Translations under genes and position numbers: made by a program | The notes under the pieces: model-generated | Database searches by the model: none | The model's input: only the letters and a program-made list of their open reading frames with translations | Told to the model about the DNA's origin: nothing | Origin: Planctomycetota bacterium | Lineage (GTDB): Bacteria > Planctomycetota > UBA1135 > UBA2386 | Reading direction: 5' to 3' | DNA length: 64,000 nucleotides | Assembly (NCBI GenBank): GCA_965228735.1 | Contig: OZ245838.1 | Location: forward strand, 800,001 to 864,000 | Part shown: piece by piece, positions 40,063 to 49,425 of the stretch | Layout: each line of letters begins with the position of its first letter | Numbering within the stretch: position 1 is the stretch's first letter

Positions 40063-43000
40063 ATGCCCGCCGTCCGCCTCATCGTCACATCGATCCTGGC
40101 CGGAGGTGCGCTCGCACCGCTCACGGCCCAGAATCTGATCGCCAATCTGCAGCCGGCCGGGGGGAGTGCGTCCGGCGGGTTCTTCGAGGGGTTCGCCGTC
40201 GCGGGCAACGGGGCGTTCGCGGTCTTCAGCGCCAACGGGCGTCACGGCCGTGAGCTCTGGGTGACGGACGGCACGCAGGCCGGCAGCGACCTGCTGGTCG
40301 ACCTCGAGCCCGGCGCGAGCGGGTCGTTTCCCGGTGAGTTCGCCGTGCTCGGGAACGAGGTGCTGTTCGCGGCGACCGTGCCAGGGCTCGGTCGTGAGCT
40401 CTGGATCACGGACGGCACGGTTCACGGCACCCGCCTGCTGCGTGACCTCGACCCCGGCTCCGGATCGAGTTCGCCGGACGAGCTCACGACGTTCGGAGGC
40501 TTCGTGTACTTTGCGGCCAACGTTCCCGGGGCCGGGATCGAGTTGTGCCGAACGGATGGCACGACGGCTGGCACCGGGATCTTCGCCGACCTGACGGTCG
40601 GCAGTTCGTCGCCGCGTGAGTTCGCGGTCGTGGGGAACGAGCTCTACTTCACCGCGATAATCGCAGGGGCGGGGCGCGAGCTGTGTCGCACGGACGGCAC
40701 CGCCGCCAACACGGGCCTCGCGGTCGACGTCGTGCCGGGGTCCACGGGTTCGACGCCGACCGACATCGCGCCGTTCGGGAGCGGGCTGCTGTTCAGCGCG
40801 TTCGCCTCCGCGACCGGCCGGGAGGCCTACTTCTCCGACGGCACGGCGGCAGGCACCGTGTTGCTCGCCGACCTGAATCCCGGGCAGAACTCCAACCCGA
40901 TCGAGTTCACGGACCTCGGCGGGCTCGCCGTGTTTCGCGCGACGGGGCCGGCCGGCCGTGAGCTCTACGTCACGGACGGGACGCCGGCGAACACCGCCCT
41001 GTTGCGCGATATCCGGGCCGGGATCAGCAGCGGGGTCACCACCGAGGAGTTCGTCCAGTATCAGGGGCGGGCCTACTTCAGCGCCGACGACGGCGCGATC
41101 GGTCAGGAGTTGTGGAGCACCGACGGCACGCCGGCCGGAACCGGCCCGGTTCTCGATCTGCGGCCCGGCAGTCCGGACTCCGCCCCGGCCGGGTTCGTCG
41201 AGATTGGCGGCGAGCTGTGGTTCGTCGCCACCGATGCCGGCGGTGATCGGGAGATCTGGAAGACGGACGGCACGGCCACCGGAACGGTTCAGGTCATCGA
41301 TCTCGAGGCGTCGTTCTCCGCCCAGCCGGAGGATCTCGTGCCGTTCGGTGGCGGCGCCGTTCTGTGTTCGGCCATCGCGCCGGGCACCGGACGCGAACCG
41401 TTTCACGTCGACGGGACCGTGCCCGGGAGCTATCTGCTCGTCGACACCAGGCCCGCCGCCGGCGACTCGAACCCGGAGGGTTGGACGGAGTTCGCGGGAG
41501 GCGCGTTCTTCGCCGCCAGCGTCACCGGGGTCGGCACGGAGGGATACGTGACGGACGGCACCTCGGCCGGTACGGCCGTCGTCGACCTGCTGCCGGGTGG
41601 CGGCAGCGGTAGGCCCGAACACGCCGTGGCGTTCGGGGGGCGCATCGTGTTCGAAGGCGACGACGGACCGAGCGGTCGTGAGCTGTTCTCAACGGATGGG
41701 ACGCTGGGCGGAACCATCCAGCTCAGTGATGTTCCGGGCGGCAACGGAGTGCAGCCGCGGTTCATGGTCGCAACGTCGACCCATGTGTTCTATCGCGGCA
41801 GCGAGGCGCAGTATGGCAGCGAGTTGCACGTTTCCGACGGGACCCCGGCGGGCACCGGTCGGTTGGCGGATCTGAACCCGGGCTCGCTGTCGTCGAATCC
41901 GAGCGACTTCGCCGTGGCCGGTGATCGCGCGTTCTTCGTCGCCAACGACGGGGTCAGCGGGAGCGAACTCTTCTCCAGCGATGGTTCGCTCGCCGGGACC
42001 GTCTTGCACGACATTCGCCCCGGCACCGTGGGCTCGTCCCCGGACGAGCTCGTCGATCTCCAGGGCAAACTCGTGTTCGTCGCGAACGATGGTTCGCAGG
42101 GTCTCGAACTCTGGTGCTCGGACGGCTCGGTGGCCGGGACCAATCCGATTGCGGATCTCGTGCCCGGTATCGGTAGTTCCTCTCCCCGCGACCTCACAGT
42201 TGCGGACACCCGAGTGTTCTTCACCGCCGCCATCCCGGGGGCCGGTCGGGAACTCTGTGTCACCGATGGTACGGCTGCCGGCACGGGACTCGTCGTGGAC
42301 CTCGTGCCCGGCGGTGTTGGCTCCGTGATTCGTGACCTCCGCGGCGTCGGATCGCGTGCGTTCTTCCTCTACGACGATGGTTCGGGGACGGGCGCCGAAC
42401 TCTGGACCAGTGACGGCACCGCGGCCGGAACGCATCTCGTGCGCGACATCGGCCCGGGCGCGATCGATGGTCCGATCCCGGGTTCGTTGACGTCGATCCT
42501 CGACGGGCAACTGCTGTTGTTCGCGGCGAGCGACGTCGCCAGCGGCATGCAGTTGTGGATCAGCAACGGCACGACTGGGGGAACGCTGCCAGTGACATCT
42601 TTCGGTGTCGGGGGGCGCGGTGCCGTCTCACTCGGACCGTTCCTCGATACCGGCAGCCGCGTGTTCTTCGCCGCCGATGACGGGCTCCAGGGCAACGAGC
42701 CGTGGGTCTTCGACCTCAACGGTTCGGGCGCGGCGTTCGTGCTCAACTACGGCCATGGCTGCTCGACCACTCCCACGACGGTGCCCCGGATCGGCTCGAC
42801 CGGCGGCCTCCCCTCGCCGGGGACCACGACGTTCGCCGTGACCCTCACGAACGCACCCGCGACGACCGCGGCGTTCCCGCTCGTGGCGTTCACGCCGGGA
42901 TCGTTCCTGCTCGGCTCGGGCTGTCGCCAACTCATCGGAGTGCCCTACATCGCGCTGCCGCTCCGCTTCACGGACCCGGTCGGTGACGCCCAGATCCCGA

Positions 43001-43131
43001 TCGGTTTGCCGAACGACCCGAGCTACATCGGGGTCAACCTGTTCTGTCAGTGGGGCGTCATCGCGACGCCGGGACGCTTGCTCGGCGCATTCGATCTCAG
43101 CGACGGGCTGCAGGCCCAGATCGGGAACTGA
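40063..43131 (+). CDS. Secreted ELWxxDGT-repeat (beta-propeller) protein
   Basis: Signal peptide; more than 15 G.EL(W/Y/F/C)..DGT..GT repeats; distinct C-terminal domain. Confidence 0.93.
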   Translation: MPAVRLIVTSILAGGALAPLTAQNLIANLQPAGGSASGGFFEGFAVAGNGAFAVFSANGRHGRELWVTDGTQAGSDLLVDLEPGASGSFPGEFAVLGNEVLFAATVPGLGRELWITDGTVHGTRLLRDLDPGSGSSSPDELTTFGGFVYFAANVPGAGIELCRTDGTTAGTGIFADLTVGSSSPREFAVVGNELYFTAIIAGAGRELCRTDGTAANTGLAVDVVPGSTGSTPTDIAPFGSGLLFSAFASATGREAYFSDGTAAGTVLLADLNPGQNSNPIEFTDLGGLAVFRATGPAGRELYVTDGTPANTALLRDIRAGISSGVTTEEFVQYQGRAYFSADDGAIGQELWSTDGTPAGTGPVLDLRPGSPDSAPAGFVEIGGELWFVATDAGGDREIWKTDGTATGTVQVIDLEASFSAQPEDLVPFGGGAVLCSAIAPGTGREPFHVDGTVPGSYLLVDTRPAAGDSNPEGWTEFAGGAFFAASVTGVGTEGYVTDGTSAGTAVVDLLPGGGSGRPEHAVAFGGRIVFEGDDGPSGRELFSTDGTLGGTIQLSDVPGGNGVQPRFMVATSTHVFYRGSEAQYGSELHVSDGTPAGTGRLADLNPGSLSSNPSDFAVAGDRAFFVANDGVSGSELFSSDGSLAGTVLHDIRPGTVGSSPDELVDLQGKLVFVANDGSQGLELWCSDGSVAGTNPIADLVPGIGSSSPRDLTVADTRVFFTAAIPGAGRELCVTDGTAAGTGLVVDLVPGGVGSVIRDLRGVGSRAFFLYDDGSGTGAELWTSDGTAAGTHLVRDIGPGAIDGPIPGSLTSILDGQLLLFAASDVASGMQLWISNGTTGGTLPVTSFGVGGRGAVSLGPFLDTGSRVFFAADDGLQGNEPWVFDLNGSGAAFVLNYGHGCSTTPTTVPRIGSTGGLPSPGTTTFAVTLTNAPATTAAFPLVAFTPGSFLLGSGCRQLIGVPYIALPLRFTDPVGDAQIPIGLPNDPSYIGVNLFCQWGVIATPGRLLGAFDLSDGLQAQIGN

Positions 43132-44455: not shown

Positions 44456-46825
44456 GTGGACCTGAGCACGTTCGTGCAGCGACTGCGCGACAATCGCGAG
44501 GACGGACCGGGCGTCGTCGATGCCTGGCACCGCACCGAGGCGCGCGCGGCGCGGATGCGACCGGTGCCCGAGTGGCTGCACGAAAAGCTCGTGGATGCGC
44601 TGCGCGCGCGCGGCATCCAGGAGCTCTACAGCCACCAGCGCGAGTGTGCCGACGCGCTGCACGGCGGCAAGAACGTCGTCATCGCGACCTCGACCGCGTC
44701 CGGCAAATCGCTGAGCTACCAGCTGCCGGTGCTCGACGCGCTGCTGCGCGATGGGCTCGATGCGCGCGCGCTGCACCTGTATCCGACCAAGGCGCTGGCG
44801 CGCGACCAGATGGCGGATCTCGAGCAGCTCATCGCGGCCGCGGGCCTCGGTGACGAGCTGCCGGTCGCGGTCTACGACGGCGACACGCCGCCGTCGGTGC
44901 GGCAGGCGATGCGCGAGAAGGGCGCGTGCGTGCTGACCAACCCGCACATGCTGCACCAGGGCATCCTGCCGAACCACACCAAGTGGCAGGGTCTGTTCAC
45001 CGGTCTGCGCTACGTTGTCGTCGACGAGCTGCACACGCTGTCGGGGATCTACGGCTCGCACGTCGCCAACGTGCTGCGGCGGCTGCGGCGGATCTGCCGG
45101 CACTACGGCAGCGATCCGGTGTTCTGCGGCGCGTCCGCGACGATCAGCAACGCCGGTGAACACGGCCGGAAGCTGTTCGAGCAGCCCGTCGAGGTCGTGG
45201 ACGACGACGGCAGCCCCGCGGGCCGCAAGCACTACGTGTTCTTGAACCCGCAGCTCGTGTCCGCCGCGTCCGGCATGCGCGTGCCCGCGAGCGAGTCGGC
45301 GCGCCAGCTCGGCGGCGAATTGCTCGGCAGCGACCTGCAGACGATCTTCTTCGCGCGGTCGCGCAACCAGACCGAGGTGCTGCTCAAGTACCTGCGCGAC
45401 GAGGCCAAGGCGCGCAAGATCGACCAGGGGCGGGTCGCGGGCTACCGCGGCGGCTACCTGCCGAACCTGCGGCGCTCGATCGAGAAGGGGCTGCGCAAGG
45501 GCGAGATCCGGACCGTCGTCTCGACGAACGCGCTCGAGCTCGGCGTCGACATCGGCAGCCTCGACGTCTGCGTGCTCGTCGGCTACCCGGGGACGGTCGC
45601 GAGCACGTTCCAGCGCGCGGGTCGCGTCGGGCGCCGCACGCAGGAGAGCGCCGTCGTGATGGTGGCGCGCTCGTCGGCGATGGATCAATTCCTCGTGCAG
45701 CATCCGGACTACCTGTTCGGCACCCGGCGCGACGCGGTGAGCATCGATCCCGACAACGCGATCATCCTCACGAACCACATCCGCTGTGCTGTGTTCGAGC
45801 TGCCGTTCGATCGCGGCGAGATGTTCGGCGAGGCGGCGGACACCGCCGCCGTTCTCGAGTTCCTGACCGAGGACCTCGGGGTGCTCGTCGAGCAGGGCGG
45901 GCGCTTCCACTACGCCGACCGCACGTATCCGGCCGAGGGCGTGAGCCTGACCGCGGCCGACATGGACAACGTCACGATCCAGGACGTGGAGACGCAGAAG
46001 ATCCTGGCCGAGATCGATCGGCCGTCGGCGATCACGGAGGTGCACGACGGCGCCATCTACGGCCACCAGGGCGACACGTATCTCGTCGAACGCTTCGACT
46101 ACGAGGATCGGCGCGCGTTCGTGAAGCGCATCGACTCGGACTACTACACCGAGGCCGACGTCGAGACCGAGGTCAAGATCCTGCACCTCGACGAGCAGCA
46201 GGATCACCGCGGCTACGTCGCGCACCGCGGCGAGGTGCACGTGAGCACGGTCGCCAAGGCGTTCAAGAAGATCAAATACTACACGCGCGAGAACGTCGGC
46301 ATCGGGCCGATCGAACTGCCGCCCGAGGAGTTCGAGACCGAGGCGACCGCGCTCGTGCTGCAGCCGGAGCTGATCGCCGATCTCGGGCTCAAGCGCGGCG
46401 GCGAGGCGGCGTGCCTGCAGGGCGTCGGCGAGCTGCTCAAGGGGCTCGTGCCGCTGTTCGTGCGCGTCGATCCGGGCGATGTGCGCGTGCTCGCCGAGGC
46501 GCTGCAGCCGCACTTCGAGGCGCCGACGCTGATCCTCTACGACCGCATCCCCAACGGCGTCGGGCTCGCCGAACGCATCTATCGCGTGCACCGCGAGATC
46601 CTCGGCGCGGCGCTCGAGCTCGTGCAGCGCTGCCAGTGCCGCTTCGGGTGCCCGTCGTGCGTCGGCCCGAGCAGCACGCTCGGGGCGCGCAGCAAGGCGG
46701 TCGCGATGGCGATCCTCACGGGCATGCTCGGCGATGGCGCGACGTCGGTGCGAGCGCGGCCCTTGCCCGACAACGGCGCCCAGCTGTCTGGTGAGGGTGC
46801 GGCGGGTGAGGGTGCGGCGTGGTAG
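44456..46825 (+). CDS. mrfA: DEAD/DEAH-box helicase with DUF1998 (MrfA/Hrq1-like)
   Basis: LYSHQ, TSTASGKS, YPTKALARDQ, YDGDTP, DELH, SAT, TNALELGVDIG, QRAGRVGR; C-terminal CQCRFGCPSC. Confidence 0.9.
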   Translation: MDLSTFVQRLRDNREDGPGVVDAWHRTEARAARMRPVPEWLHEKLVDALRARGIQELYSHQRECADALHGGKNVVIATSTASGKSLSYQLPVLDALLRDGLDARALHLYPTKALARDQMADLEQLIAAAGLGDELPVAVYDGDTPPSVRQAMREKGACVLTNPHMLHQGILPNHTKWQGLFTGLRYVVVDELHTLSGIYGSHVANVLRRLRRICRHYGSDPVFCGASATISNAGEHGRKLFEQPVEVVDDDGSPAGRKHYVFLNPQLVSAASGMRVPASESARQLGGELLGSDLQTIFFARSRNQTEVLLKYLRDEAKARKIDQGRVAGYRGGYLPNLRRSIEKGLRKGEIRTVVSTNALELGVDIGSLDVCVLVGYPGTVASTFQRAGRVGRRTQESAVVMVARSSAMDQFLVQHPDYLFGTRRDAVSIDPDNAIILTNHIRCAVFELPFDRGEMFGEAADTAAVLEFLTEDLGVLVEQGGRFHYADRTYPAEGVSLTAADMDNVTIQDVETQKILAEIDRPSAITEVHDGAIYGHQGDTYLVERFDYEDRRAFVKRIDSDYYTEADVETEVKILHLDEQQDHRGYVAHRGEVHVSTVAKAFKKIKYYTRENVGIGPIELPPEEFETEATALVLQPELIADLGLKRGGEAACLQGVGELLKGLVPLFVRVDPGDVRVLAEALQPHFEAPTLILYDRIPNGVGLAERIYRVHREILGAALELVQRCQCRFGCPSCVGPSSTLGARSKAVAMAILTGMLGDGATSVRARPLPDNGAQLSGEGAAGEGAAW

Positions 46826-47736
46826 CCCCGGAGCGCAACAAACTCGGGCGTGACAAACTGCGGCGCGCGTTCCAGGGCGAACGCCAGCGCCGTGGCGGCT
46901 CGGCGGAGCCCGAGCAACGCACCGAACCCGCCGCACCGCCGCGTGGCAACGTCCGCGCGTTCCTCGCGCAGCGTCGCAAGAAGCTCGCGGCTGGCCAGGA
47001 CCCCGACGCGCGACCGGCCGTCGAGCTGCCGCCCGGCGAGGTCGTGCTGAGTCGCGACGGACCGTTGTGGCGCCGCGAGCTGCGCTATCCGCTCGATCAC
47101 GTGCACGGCCGCTTCCGCCTCGACGCGGCGCTCGAGCTCGACGGCGACCACCTCGCGACGATCGCCAAGACCGACGACTTCAGGGCGATCGACCCGCGCC
47201 AGTGCCTGTTCCTCGACACCGAAACGACGGGGCTGTCCGGTGGGGCGGGGACCGTGGTCTTCAACTACGGCTTCGCGTTCTTCCGCGGCGACGAGCTCGT
47301 CGTCGAGCAGCTGTTCCTGCGCGACTTCAGCGAGGAGGCGGCGATGCTGCGACACGTCGCGGCCCGGCTCTGGCAGTATCCCGTGCCCGTCACGTTCGTC
47401 GGCAAGAGCTACGACCGCCACCGCATCGCGACGCGCATGGCGCTGCACAAGCTGCGTTCGCCCGTGCTCACCGCGCCGCACCTCGATCTCTACTACTGCG
47501 CCCGCCGCGCGCACGGTCACGAGCTGCCCGACACGCGGCTCAGGACGGTCGAAGAACGCTTGCTCGCCGTGCACCGCGAGGACGACCTGCCGGGCAGCGA
47601 GGCGCCGGCGGCGTTCCTCGACTGGATCCGCAACGGCCGCGGCCCGGTCGACCGGGTGCTCGAACACAACCGGATCGACGTGCTGAGCCTCTGCACCCTG
47701 CTCGGTGTCCTGGCGGGAGCGGCGCGCGGGGCGTAA
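46819..47736 (+). CDS. mrfB: RNase H-like DEDD exonuclease (YprB/MrfB-like)
   Basis: FLDTETTGLSGGAG, TFVGKSYD, HLDL, DDLPGSEAP, HNRIDVLSL; overlaps the helicase gene. Confidence 0.85.
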   Translation: MVAPERNKLGRDKLRRAFQGERQRRGGSAEPEQRTEPAAPPRGNVRAFLAQRRKKLAAGQDPDARPAVELPPGEVVLSRDGPLWRRELRYPLDHVHGRFRLDAALELDGDHLATIAKTDDFRAIDPRQCLFLDTETTGLSGGAGTVVFNYGFAFFRGDELVVEQLFLRDFSEEAAMLRHVAARLWQYPVPVTFVGKSYDRHRIATRMALHKLRSPVLTAPHLDLYYCARRAHGHELPDTRLRTVEERLLAVHREDDLPGSEAPAAFLDWIRNGRGPVDRVLEHNRIDVLSLCTLLGVLAGAARGA

Positions 47737-47750
47737 TCTGGCGGCTGCAC

Positions 47751-48884
47751 ATGCAGCACTTGTCAGAACCATCGATCGCGCGACGGCTCACAGCGGGCCT
47801 GCTCGCTTCCACCCTGGCGCTCGGCGCCGCCGCGCAGGACGCGCGCCAGCCGACGAAGTCCCTGCCGGACTTCGAGGAGCTCGTCGCGGACTGGAAGGCG
47901 GCGAACCAGGAGTACCACGAAAAGTCCGCGGCGATCCGCGAGACGGCGGACTACCGGGCCGCCGTGAAGGCCAAGGATCGAGCGGCGATGCGCAAGCTCC
48001 TGAGCGCGGTCGAGCGGCCGGACCCCGGTGAGTTCGGGGAGCGCGCGCTCGCGATCGCGGCCGACTACCCGCCGGACCACGCGCTGCGGGTCCTCACGTT
48101 CGTGGCCAACAACCTCTACGACAAGGCGGTGTTCGCCACGATGATGGAGCGCATCGAGGAGGACTTCATCGCCAGTCCCGAGCTCGACGGGATCCTCAAG
48201 AACGGCATGATGATCGCGTCATTCGTCGGCCCGGAGAAGGCCAACGCCGTGTTGCAGAAGGTCATCACGGACAACCCGGCCGGGCTGCCGAAGGCGTGGG
48301 CGCTCTACTGGCAGGGGATGATGCTGCGGCGTCAGGGCGGTTCGAAGGCGACCGCCGAGAAGCTCTGGGCGCGCGCGGCCGAGCTCGCGCCGGGGAGCAT
48401 CGTCGCCGACAAGATCCACGGCCCGAAGTTCGAGGCGGACCGACTCCAGATCGGCATGGTCGCGCCCGACATCGAGGGCACCGACACACAGGGCGCGCGC
48501 TTCAAGCTCAGCGACTATCGCGGCAAGGTCGTCGTGCTCGACTTCTGGGGCTTCTGGTGAGGCCCTTGCGTGGCAATGATCCCACACGAGCGGTCGCTCG
48601 TGGCAAAGCTCAAGAACAAGCCCTTCGCGCTGATCGGCGTCAACAGCGACAAGGACCTCGACTACTACCACGCCGAAGCCAAGGAGAAGCAGGTCACGTG
48701 GCGGTCGTTCTGGTGCGGTGAGGACGGCACCTCGGGCGCGATCCCGTCGAAGTGGAACGTGACCGGATGGCCGACGATCTACGTGCTCGACCACAAGGGC
48801 GTGATCCGCTTCAAGAACGTCCGCGGCAAGGCCATGGACGACGCGGTGGAGACGCTGCTCGCCGAGATGGCGGGCGACCGGTAG
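47751..48884 (+). CDS. Exported TlpA/peroxiredoxin-like thioredoxin-fold selenoprotein candidate (377 aa, Sec270, WUGPC); split in two by the ORF track
   Basis: ORFs 47067..48560 and 48570..48884 are in the same frame, separated only by TGA 48558-48560. Read-through gives LSDYRGKVVVLDFWGFW-U-GPCVAMIPHE...IGVNSD...WNVTGWPTIYVLDHKGVIR; N-terminal signal peptide. Confidence 0.92.
48585..48602 (+). promoter_or_regulatory. Bacterial SECIS-like hairpin
   Basis: Perfect 7-bp stem CACGAGC/GCUCGUG with a GGUC apical loop; 31 nt separate the UGA from the loop. Confidence 0.8.
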
Positions 48885-48891
48885 CCCGGCG

Positions 48892-49425
48892 ATGACCGGT
48901 CCCGTGACGCCCGGTCCCGTGACGCCCGATGCGGCGGGGGATCGGCCGCCGCTGGCGTCGCGGCTGTCGATCACGTTGCCGGTCGTCTGGGGTGTCGGTT
49001 GCCTGCTCGGCTTCGCCGATCCGGGCGACGAGTACGCGCTGTGGGCGGTGGGCTCGATGCTCGGCACGTGGACCGCGCTGCTCTTCCCGATCGGGCATCC
49101 CCAGGACGCCGTCGCGCCGACACTCGTGGTCGGCTGCGCTCTCATGTGGGGGTTCGGCTGCCTGCTCCAGCGCCAGCGCGTGCCGGCTGCGCTCTGGCTC
49201 GGCGCCTGGGTGTCCGCCAGTGCGGCATTCTTCCTGGCGCTGCACGGCGCCCACAGCGACCACGCCGCGGCGGTGCAGAAGCACGGCTCGACGGCCGCAT
49301 TCGTGGCCTGCGCGTCACAGCTGGGGGTCTACGCGGCCACGGCCATCGCGTTCGGGGCGGCGGTGGTCCGGTTTTTTCTGGAGCTGCGGCGACGGAATCC
49401 GGCGGTGGTGGCGTCGAGGGGGTGA
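48892..49425 (+). CDS. Hypothetical multi-pass membrane protein
   Basis: About 5 hydrophobic segments; starts 8 nt after the selenoprotein gene. Confidence 0.65.
   Translation: MTGPVTPGPVTPDAAGDRPPLASRLSITLPVVWGVGCLLGFADPGDEYALWAVGSMLGTWTALLFPIGHPQDAVAPTLVVGCALMWGFGCLLQRQRVPAALWLGAWVSASAAFFLALHGAHSDHAAAVQKHGSTAAFVACASQLGVYAATAIAFGAAVVRFFLELRRRNPAVVASRG

Follow-up and report, generated by a model that had tools for sequence, protein, structure and literature searches.

We analyzed a 64,000-nucleotide (nt) stretch of DNA from a Planctomycetota bacterium (GenBank assembly GCA_965228735.1, contig OZ245838.1, forward-strand positions 800,001 to 864,000), referred to here as the window; positions count from its first letter unless a genome coordinate is given. 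Two apparent broken genes at 47751 to 48884 are, judging from their sequence, very likely one gene in which UGA is read as selenocysteine (Sec). We consider it highly probable that the product is an exported UxxC enzyme with a TlpA/ResA fold, that its UGA is recoded through a downstream hairpin, and that it reduces disulfides in the cell envelope. The original prediction, made from the letters of the window, had proposed a 377-amino-acid (aa) Sec protein with a helical N-terminal domain that annotation pipelines would split. The read-through translation and an AlphaFold2 model agree with this proposal, and database entries list the two halves separately.

An in-frame UGA within a single predicted gene

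The reading frame from ATG 47751 to TAG 48884 contains one internal stop, the TGA at 48558 to 48560, in the context DFWGFW-TGA-GPC. As predicted, this codon alone separates two same-frame open reading frame (ORF) halves and falls at the position of the attacking cysteine (Cys). Read-through yields a protein of 377 residues (P0001) with Sec at U270, in the motif U270-G-P-C273 (WGFWUGPC). The full-length Cys homologs P0002 (53% identity) and P0003 (45%) cover 88–89% of P0001. The features of the gene, all on the forward strand, are as follows.

47751–48884 (+): single coding sequence of 377 aa with the TGA read through (P0001), from ORF translation and full-length Cys homologs
47751–47834 (+): predicted cleavable export signal (residues 1–28; basic, hydrophobic, AAA/Q), from a hydropathy rule
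47865–48443 (+): all-helical, helical-repeat-like N-terminal domain (residues 39–231), from the AlphaFold2 model
48444–48881 (+): TlpA/ResA/DsbE-type thioredoxin-fold domain, from Pfam, the AlphaFold2 model and a fold search
48558–48560 (+): in-frame UGA at the attacking position of UxxC (U270), from the ORF, homolog alignment and public assemblies
48567–48569 (+): resolving Cys273 of U-G-P-C, invariant in alignment A1
48585–48602 (+): likely selenocysteine insertion sequence (SECIS) with a 7-bp stem and a GGUC loop at 48592–48595, encoding H-E-R-S-L-V, from conservation and consensus fit

Cys273 is present in 82 of 82 TGA members of the family, as it must be by the definition of the motif search. 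The TGA codon was unchanged in contigs from all four public sequencing runs examined, with neither TGC nor TGT in its place. Three of these runs are identical over the stretch and are possibly the source of the present DNA. The fourth is a strain variant in which nine substitutions are listed and 15 nt are deleted; neither the UGA codon nor the hairpin is affected.

A conserved hairpin follows the UGA

The perfect CACGAGC/GCUCGUG stem and GGUC loop that had been noticed earlier are present at 48585 to 48602 (CACGAGC-GGTC-GCTCGTG; folding energy of the 18-mer, −10.5 kcal/mol). The predicted distance of 31 nt holds for the start of the loop but not for the start of the stem, which lies 24 nt after the TGA. 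The bacterial SECIS consensus of the bSECISearch model, as given in the consulted part of PMC13188914, comprises a loop of 3–9 nt with G in its first two positions, a stem of 4–16 bp, a spacing of 16–37 nt, and a minimum free energy of at most −7.5. With its 4-nt loop, G in first position, 7-bp stem and 31-nt spacing, the window hairpin fits this consensus. In the Escherichia coli apical loop, G23 and U24 are the conserved bases named in the part of PMC8659212 consulted. Consensus-passing hairpins with stems of at least 7 bp follow 86 of 1000 random TGA triplets in this genome, which is 69% GC. On sequence grounds, a single hairpin is weak evidence, and conservation among relatives is strong evidence.

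To collect relatives, we used tblastn at a threshold of 130 bits, keeping 124 of the 246 unique sites found in the genome and in 223 loci; this count superseded an earlier motif search that had missed 63 of 148 loci. The 12-nt core of the hairpin is exact in 71 of 96 TGA members, compared with 1 of 28 Cys members. The selection of the Cys set drew in part on a pattern located upstream of the hairpin, and the 96:28 ratio is therefore no measure of prevalence. Codon choice within the core follows the same division: Arg is encoded by CGG in 71/73 TGA members versus 8/27 Cys members, and Leu by CTC in 87/90 versus 11/22. Ser is encoded by TCG in 72/72 TGA members, and Ser itself is retained in just 3/28 Cys members. 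Codons flanking the core vary, with the adjacent Pro encoded by CCG in 46/93 and Ala codons free as well. Under genome codon usage, the five H-E-R-S-L codons have a probability of 0.037, and the exact core was found in 63 of 63 members against a synonymous-shuffle mean of 1.6 and maximum of 6. Covariation of the stem had been proposed as a check; conservation was found instead, since the core is invariant. For this core-type (class I) hairpin, a search for a lower-stem extension found none (29–45% pairing), and an Rfam scan of 47400 to 49300 gave no match at E ≤ 1.

Selenocysteine and cysteine forms in Planctomycetota

Three close paralogs in the genome carry TGA at the same site and an identical 18-nt hairpin. 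The names of the protein homologs indicate Planctomycetota. Among 120 listed protein homologs, at least 32 end exactly at the Sec site (FWGxW), at least 67 besides the query have CxxC there, 2 have other residues, and 19 were not parsed by the motif. The expected interchange of Cys and Sec is seen, and the family is common in the phylum: domain matches at E ≤ 1e-25 occur in 96 of 401 Planctomycetota genomes, and 146 of the 150 matches listed (197 in all, 47 of them beyond those listed) contain one TGA. A separate contig scan contributed 5 close relatives among the 80 loci listed.

By eye, selA is more frequent in family-bearing genomes (92/96) than overall (290/401); because kin genomes are not independent, no P value is attached to this co-occurrence. 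Of the four family genomes without a selA match, three carry Cys forms without any selB match; the remaining one, which is 84% complete, has a TGA form and selB. Two genomes of the same family illustrate the exchange in a syntenic gene: in G224 it has TGA with the core intact, in G157 TGC with the core decayed. A FastTree tree built with trait columns masked requires at least eight Sec/Cys changes, with direction not inferred; this tree is poorly resolved, one row was dropped, and 1 of its 11 outgroup rows is a TGA gene.

Some members are joined or adjacent. L047, L187 and L206 encode fused double-Sec proteins in which the helical-plus-TlpA unit is present twice, as is the UGA codon, and database proteins P0063, P0070 and P0011 look like pieces of such forms, beginning after or ending at the UGA site. 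Separate tandem family genes occur in L050, L193 and L204.

The genome encodes the selenocysteine machinery

In profile searches of the genome (7.19 Mb, 93% complete), the Sec machinery that the original prediction had named as a check was found above curated cut-offs: selA (454 bits; cut-off, 268), selB (337 bits; cut-off, 242), selD, and tRNA-Sec (selC; 76.6 bits; cut-off, 47; RF01852). SelB includes the wing-3 SECIS-binding domain, and selD itself has an in-frame TGA. Together with the fold, the motif and the export predicted by hydropathy, this machinery supports the idea of an extracytoplasmic seleno-oxidoreductase.

Domains, fold and predicted export

The signal peptide that had been proposed agrees with a hydropathy rule, on which it rests in place of a dedicated predictor. 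A comparable hydrophobic N-terminus is found by this rule in 58 of 64 TGA family sites that have a start within the locus. The AlphaFold2 model has a mean predicted local distance difference test score of 93.7; the first fold model and its Foldseek search used the Cys homolog P0107, not the window protein. TPR_6 matched the N-terminal domain below its cut-off (E = 0.0056; 17.7/26.3 bits) and matched weakly in 3/55 members. A PDB sequence search with this domain gave no match, the best being annexin at E = 0.85. Foldseek likewise listed no match to it, in lists for whole-protein models that were filled by the thioredoxin domain.

P0001 exceeds the cut-offs of both PF00578 and PF08534, and the NCBI name of its two closest Cys homologs is "TlpA family protein disulfide reductase." The ResA-like WAxxUGC selenoprotein model NF041054 was not matched (34.6/300 bits); the motif here is WGFWUGPC.

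Evidence against and alternative explanations

Several observations count against an exported, hairpin-recoded envelope reductase. Among RNA data sets, no run contained more than 0.06 of the sequence words. The 63-nt region is no stabler than shuffles (z = −0.49; 58 of 200 fold equally well), and hairpin stability was accordingly rejected as proof of a SECIS. The core is invariant, without compensatory change, and one Cys member, L182 from a metagenome contig, retains it entirely, possibly as a recent Sec-to-Cys change. Just two independent Sec/Cys pairs lie on starred branches of the tree, too few for a test of co-change between Sec and the core. P0001 reaches no NCBIfam equivalog cut-off (ResA NF002854, 63.4/170 bits; TlpA NF047696, 47.9/230; DsbE TIGR00385, 32.7/123.15), and therefore works at most like ResA, TlpA or DsbE and is not filed under them. 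The ResA Glu at Cys+3 (C77/E80 in structure entry titles) is replaced by Met; this Glu, three residues past the second Cys, has a functional role in ResA. Finally, a comparison of 32 loci revealed no conserved neighboring redox gene as client or donor.

Some of these points would suit a true selenoprotein with another function, such as an isomerase, chaperone-oxidoreductase or peroxide scavenger, in place of a TlpA-type reductant fed by DsbD. The 200-aa helical domain could bind unfolded clients, the best Pfam match is AhpC-TSA, GSHPx is weakly matched in 14/55 members, the Cys+3 Glu of ResA is absent, and the neighborhood has no cytochrome c or Sco genes. We regard such a function as unlikely, though it is the strongest of the alternatives.

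If the TGA were instead a true stop, the locus would be a pseudogene or would encode a secreted 269-aa helical protein and a fragment of 102–104 aa (from GTG 48570 or ATG 48576). UGA is the commonest stop of the genome, closing 931 of 1411 long ORFs with high GC at third codon positions (GC3), the halves are separate in databases, and even a genuine selenoprotein should show some termination (E. coli recoding is 30–40% according to the consulted part of PMC4513850). Yet across the family the break is TGA in every case, never TAA or TAG, and it invariably falls in the column of the catalytic Cys (96/124 sites). With termination here, the thioredoxin fold would be severed within the active site, the C-terminal half would lack both Cys273 and a signal, and the frozen downstream codons would have no reason. 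Taken together, these data make a true stop very improbable.

Reading of UGA as Cys or Trp, through a tRNA-Cys with anticodon UCA or through reassignment of the code, would match the Cys of aligned homologs, and a 93% complete genome might be missing some tRNA, but we give this explanation next to no weight: the sole UCA tRNA among 67 ARAGORN calls has the shape of tRNA-Sec and passes RF01852, where the original prediction had considered Cys insertion by such a tRNA; tRNA-Cys has anticodon GCA and tRNA-Trp CCA; and since UGA is otherwise the commonest stop, also closing the ordinary genes gcvH, uppS, pyrE and ftsH, the code is not reassigned.

A proposed mechanism linked to DsbD

For the exported Sec enzyme that we favor, conservation and the E. 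coli mechanism suggest that the UGA is almost certainly recoded through binding of SelB, carrying Sec-tRNA, to the hairpin whose GGUC loop lies 31 nt downstream. The chain would then, with high probability, be exported through its cleavable signal. From the fold and motif, the Sec270 selenolate would attack a client disulfide or oxidized thiol, and Cys273 would resolve the intermediate. The resulting selenenyl-sulfide may well be re-reduced by the only DsbD of the genome, whose gene is present. A probable role of the helical domain is to select or hold clients, and four paralogs with divergent helical domains would divide clients among themselves. Re-reduction by DsbD is established for the Cys-containing TlpA/DsbE class, and the likely role here is that of an envelope disulfide reductase fed by DsbD.

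The DsbD gene itself appears to contain Sec:

G000:C1:4263182–4266046 (−): DsbD gene with UGSC in its C-terminal thioredoxin domain, TGA at 4263499 (L285/L286)

This ORF is the sole DsbD_TM match of the genome, with two alpha-type domains (identified by eye) and a C-terminal NFTGFN-U-GSC. In the phylum sample, 46 of 63 DsbD matches have one TGA, and in 29 of the 30 top loci checked, it sits at the attacking Cys.

Candidate hairpins at larger spacing

Nineteen TGA members of the TlpA-like family lack the core, with Leu at +13 or another non-Met residue. A second hairpin (6–7 of 7 pairs, loop at +39 to +43) is found in 15 of these 19, compared with 4/27 Cys members and 21/71 core-bearing (class I) members. 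It reuses the old 3′ strand as its own 5′ strand and has slid 7 nt downstream, to a spacing of 38 nt. Its pairs vary in a compensatory manner (G-C, A-U, G-U and U-A), and its loops are CGUGA, CGUCG or CGUGG (L037, L045, L050, L194, L195, L198, L199, L214, L217, L221, L223 and others). In a loop-and-stem test, the 38-nt register, which was picked after inspecting the same sequences, was occupied in 12 of the 19 members against a shuffle mean of 4.2 and maximum of 10. Six TGA members with HEK(E/A)MV match neither hairpin.

In DsbD, a hairpin at 44 nt with a GGUC, AGUU or CGUG loop is present in 25 of 29 close TGA genes (mean of 500 shuffles, 9.4; maximum, 15), and the remaining 4 have a hairpin at 20–24 nt. 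In a held-out set, of which 4 of 33 loci were not parsed, the 44-nt hairpin was not confirmed in distant TGA genes: it was found in 4 of 15, equal to the shuffle maximum of 4. Six of these 15 have a hairpin at 16–37 nt, and 5 have none. The 44-nt hairpin was found in 0 of 14 further DsbD Cys genes.

These data raise the combined proposal that selenium sits at each end of an envelope reducing relay in this group, from Sec-DsbD to several exported Sec-TlpA paralogs, some of them double-Sec, and that SelB reads a small N-G-(G/U)-loop hairpin at 31, 38 or 44 nt. We consider the evidence for this proposal evenly balanced. Spacings of 38 and 44 nt lie outside the 16–37 nt consensus, and SECIS-based searches would therefore miss them. 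A canonical SECIS is found in 87.4% of BSepDB entries; if the proposal is true, far-spaced hairpins could explain part of the bacterial selenoprotein genes (12.6% of those catalogued) that lack one. How far bacterial SelB can reach could be tested directly on the 38- and 44-nt candidates.

Other predicted selenoprotein genes in the genome

When 67,467 TGA sites were scanned by coding score, 146 emerged as candidates, and 42 of these were tested. In eighteen, a family match reached or spanned the TGA, which fell at a Cys position; 8 were rejected as ordinary stops and 6 further sites are undecided. With SelD and the four TlpA-like paralogs, the genome has at least 23 family-supported selenoprotein genes (L245–L284), and about 9 more are plausible. 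The supported genes include Grx, two BCP, AhpC, MsrA, deiodinase-like, SelL-related, VPGU and DG ribbon genes, two HMA genes (one with two UGA codons), Trx7-like, DsbD, five TlpA-like genes and SelD; many look exported. A hairpin with an N-G-(G/U) loop follows 31 of 34 Sec sites of the genome compared with 27% of random TGA triplets.

Candidate Sec genes without a Pfam or NCBIfam match, each with the loop hairpin, comprise three GHPLGCT-U paralogs, two single genes and a gene with two UGA codons:

G000:C1:4855623(−), 7087946(−), 3484699(+), 5497385(+), 5150736(+), 2372 and 2123(−): unmatched Sec candidates

Three FG-GAP repeat genes also have TGA beside Cys and the loop hairpin (G000:C1:5872224(−), 3065085(+) and 5458926(+)); FG-GAP Sec candidates are among the entries seen in S9 Table of PMC4807772 for a planctomycete.

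Relation to known selenoproteins

This kind of protein is already known: UxxC TlpA/Prx-like selenoproteins, listed since 2005, and extracytoplasmic-type selenoproteins are catalogued. In the portions of the literature consulted, a "thiol-disulfide isomerase-like protein" family (cd02966 TlpA-like, UxxC) was first listed from the Sargasso Sea (PMC1088965) and appears in table 1 of PMC13188914. It shares with the present family a TlpA-type thioredoxin fold, UxxC, one Sec and widespread Cys homologs. Compared by description, the 200-aa helical domain, export signal, paralog expansion and fused double-Sec forms are additional here. The same partial sources name "Prx-like thiol:disulfide oxidoreductase" (PF00578) and "Redoxin family protein" (PF08534) UxxC families (PMC13188914, PMC2398784) and, for DsbD-gamma, "Trx-like 2" cd02953 (PMC1088965, PMC2398784). 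P0001 passes the cut-offs of both Pfam families and shares their UxxC, although these families are domain-level bins. In contrast to the Cys enzymes Bacillus ResA, Bradyrhizobium TlpA, DsbE/CcmG and Bacteroides BVU_2223, Sec here replaces the attacking Cys, a soluble helical domain stands in place of a simple membrane anchor, and Met occupies Cys+3.

A precedent also comes from planctomycete P1 (2016): the consulted part of PMC4807772 (S9 Table) has two Sec candidates named "thiol-disulfide isomerase-like thioredoxin," both of them split. These share with our family the phylum, the split annotation, the two copies and a Cys homolog in Singulisphaera; they differ in that bSECISearch found no SECIS, and they are known by identifiers alone. 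The candidate hairpins of relatives (38 nt) and of DsbD genes (44 nt) studied here lie beyond the 16–37 nt of the bSECISearch consensus. The main texts of PMC12013277 and PMC13326102 name neither Planctomycetes nor TlpA, and their supplements may list this clade. A literature search that covered few subscription papers found nothing on the helical-domain clade or on 38–44 nt spacing.

The finding is mainly an annotation fix and not a new mechanism. The error in annotation is systematic: roughly one in four of the Planctomycetota genomes sampled contains this multi-copy family, which stands in databases as a truncated protein of 260 aa and a separate fragment. The family is also a natural experiment on SECIS evolution within coding sequence, with frozen codons, decay after Sec-to-Cys change and a slid hairpin.

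Genomic neighborhood

Directly upstream of the gene (44456–47736) lie an MrfA-type DEAD helicase gene with a Zn domain and then an RNase_H_2 gene; downstream are unnamed ORFs and an extracytoplasmic function (ECF)-like sigma factor gene. The RNase H neighbor recurs in 2 of 32 loci, both in genomes of the same family. Other recurring neighbor pairs were mostly antisense shadows of the family gene, and no functional link is claimed for any neighbor. A promoter and terminator scan gave nothing exceeding shuffles. Further upstream, a 1022-aa ORF (40063–43131) with a signal-like start and no Pfam match at E ≤ 0.001 contains many copies of an ELW/ELYxTDGT motif. At 48896–48925, the start of the downstream membrane-protein ORF contains a 15-nt direct repeat (TGPVT-PGPVT), one copy of which is absent in run X7.
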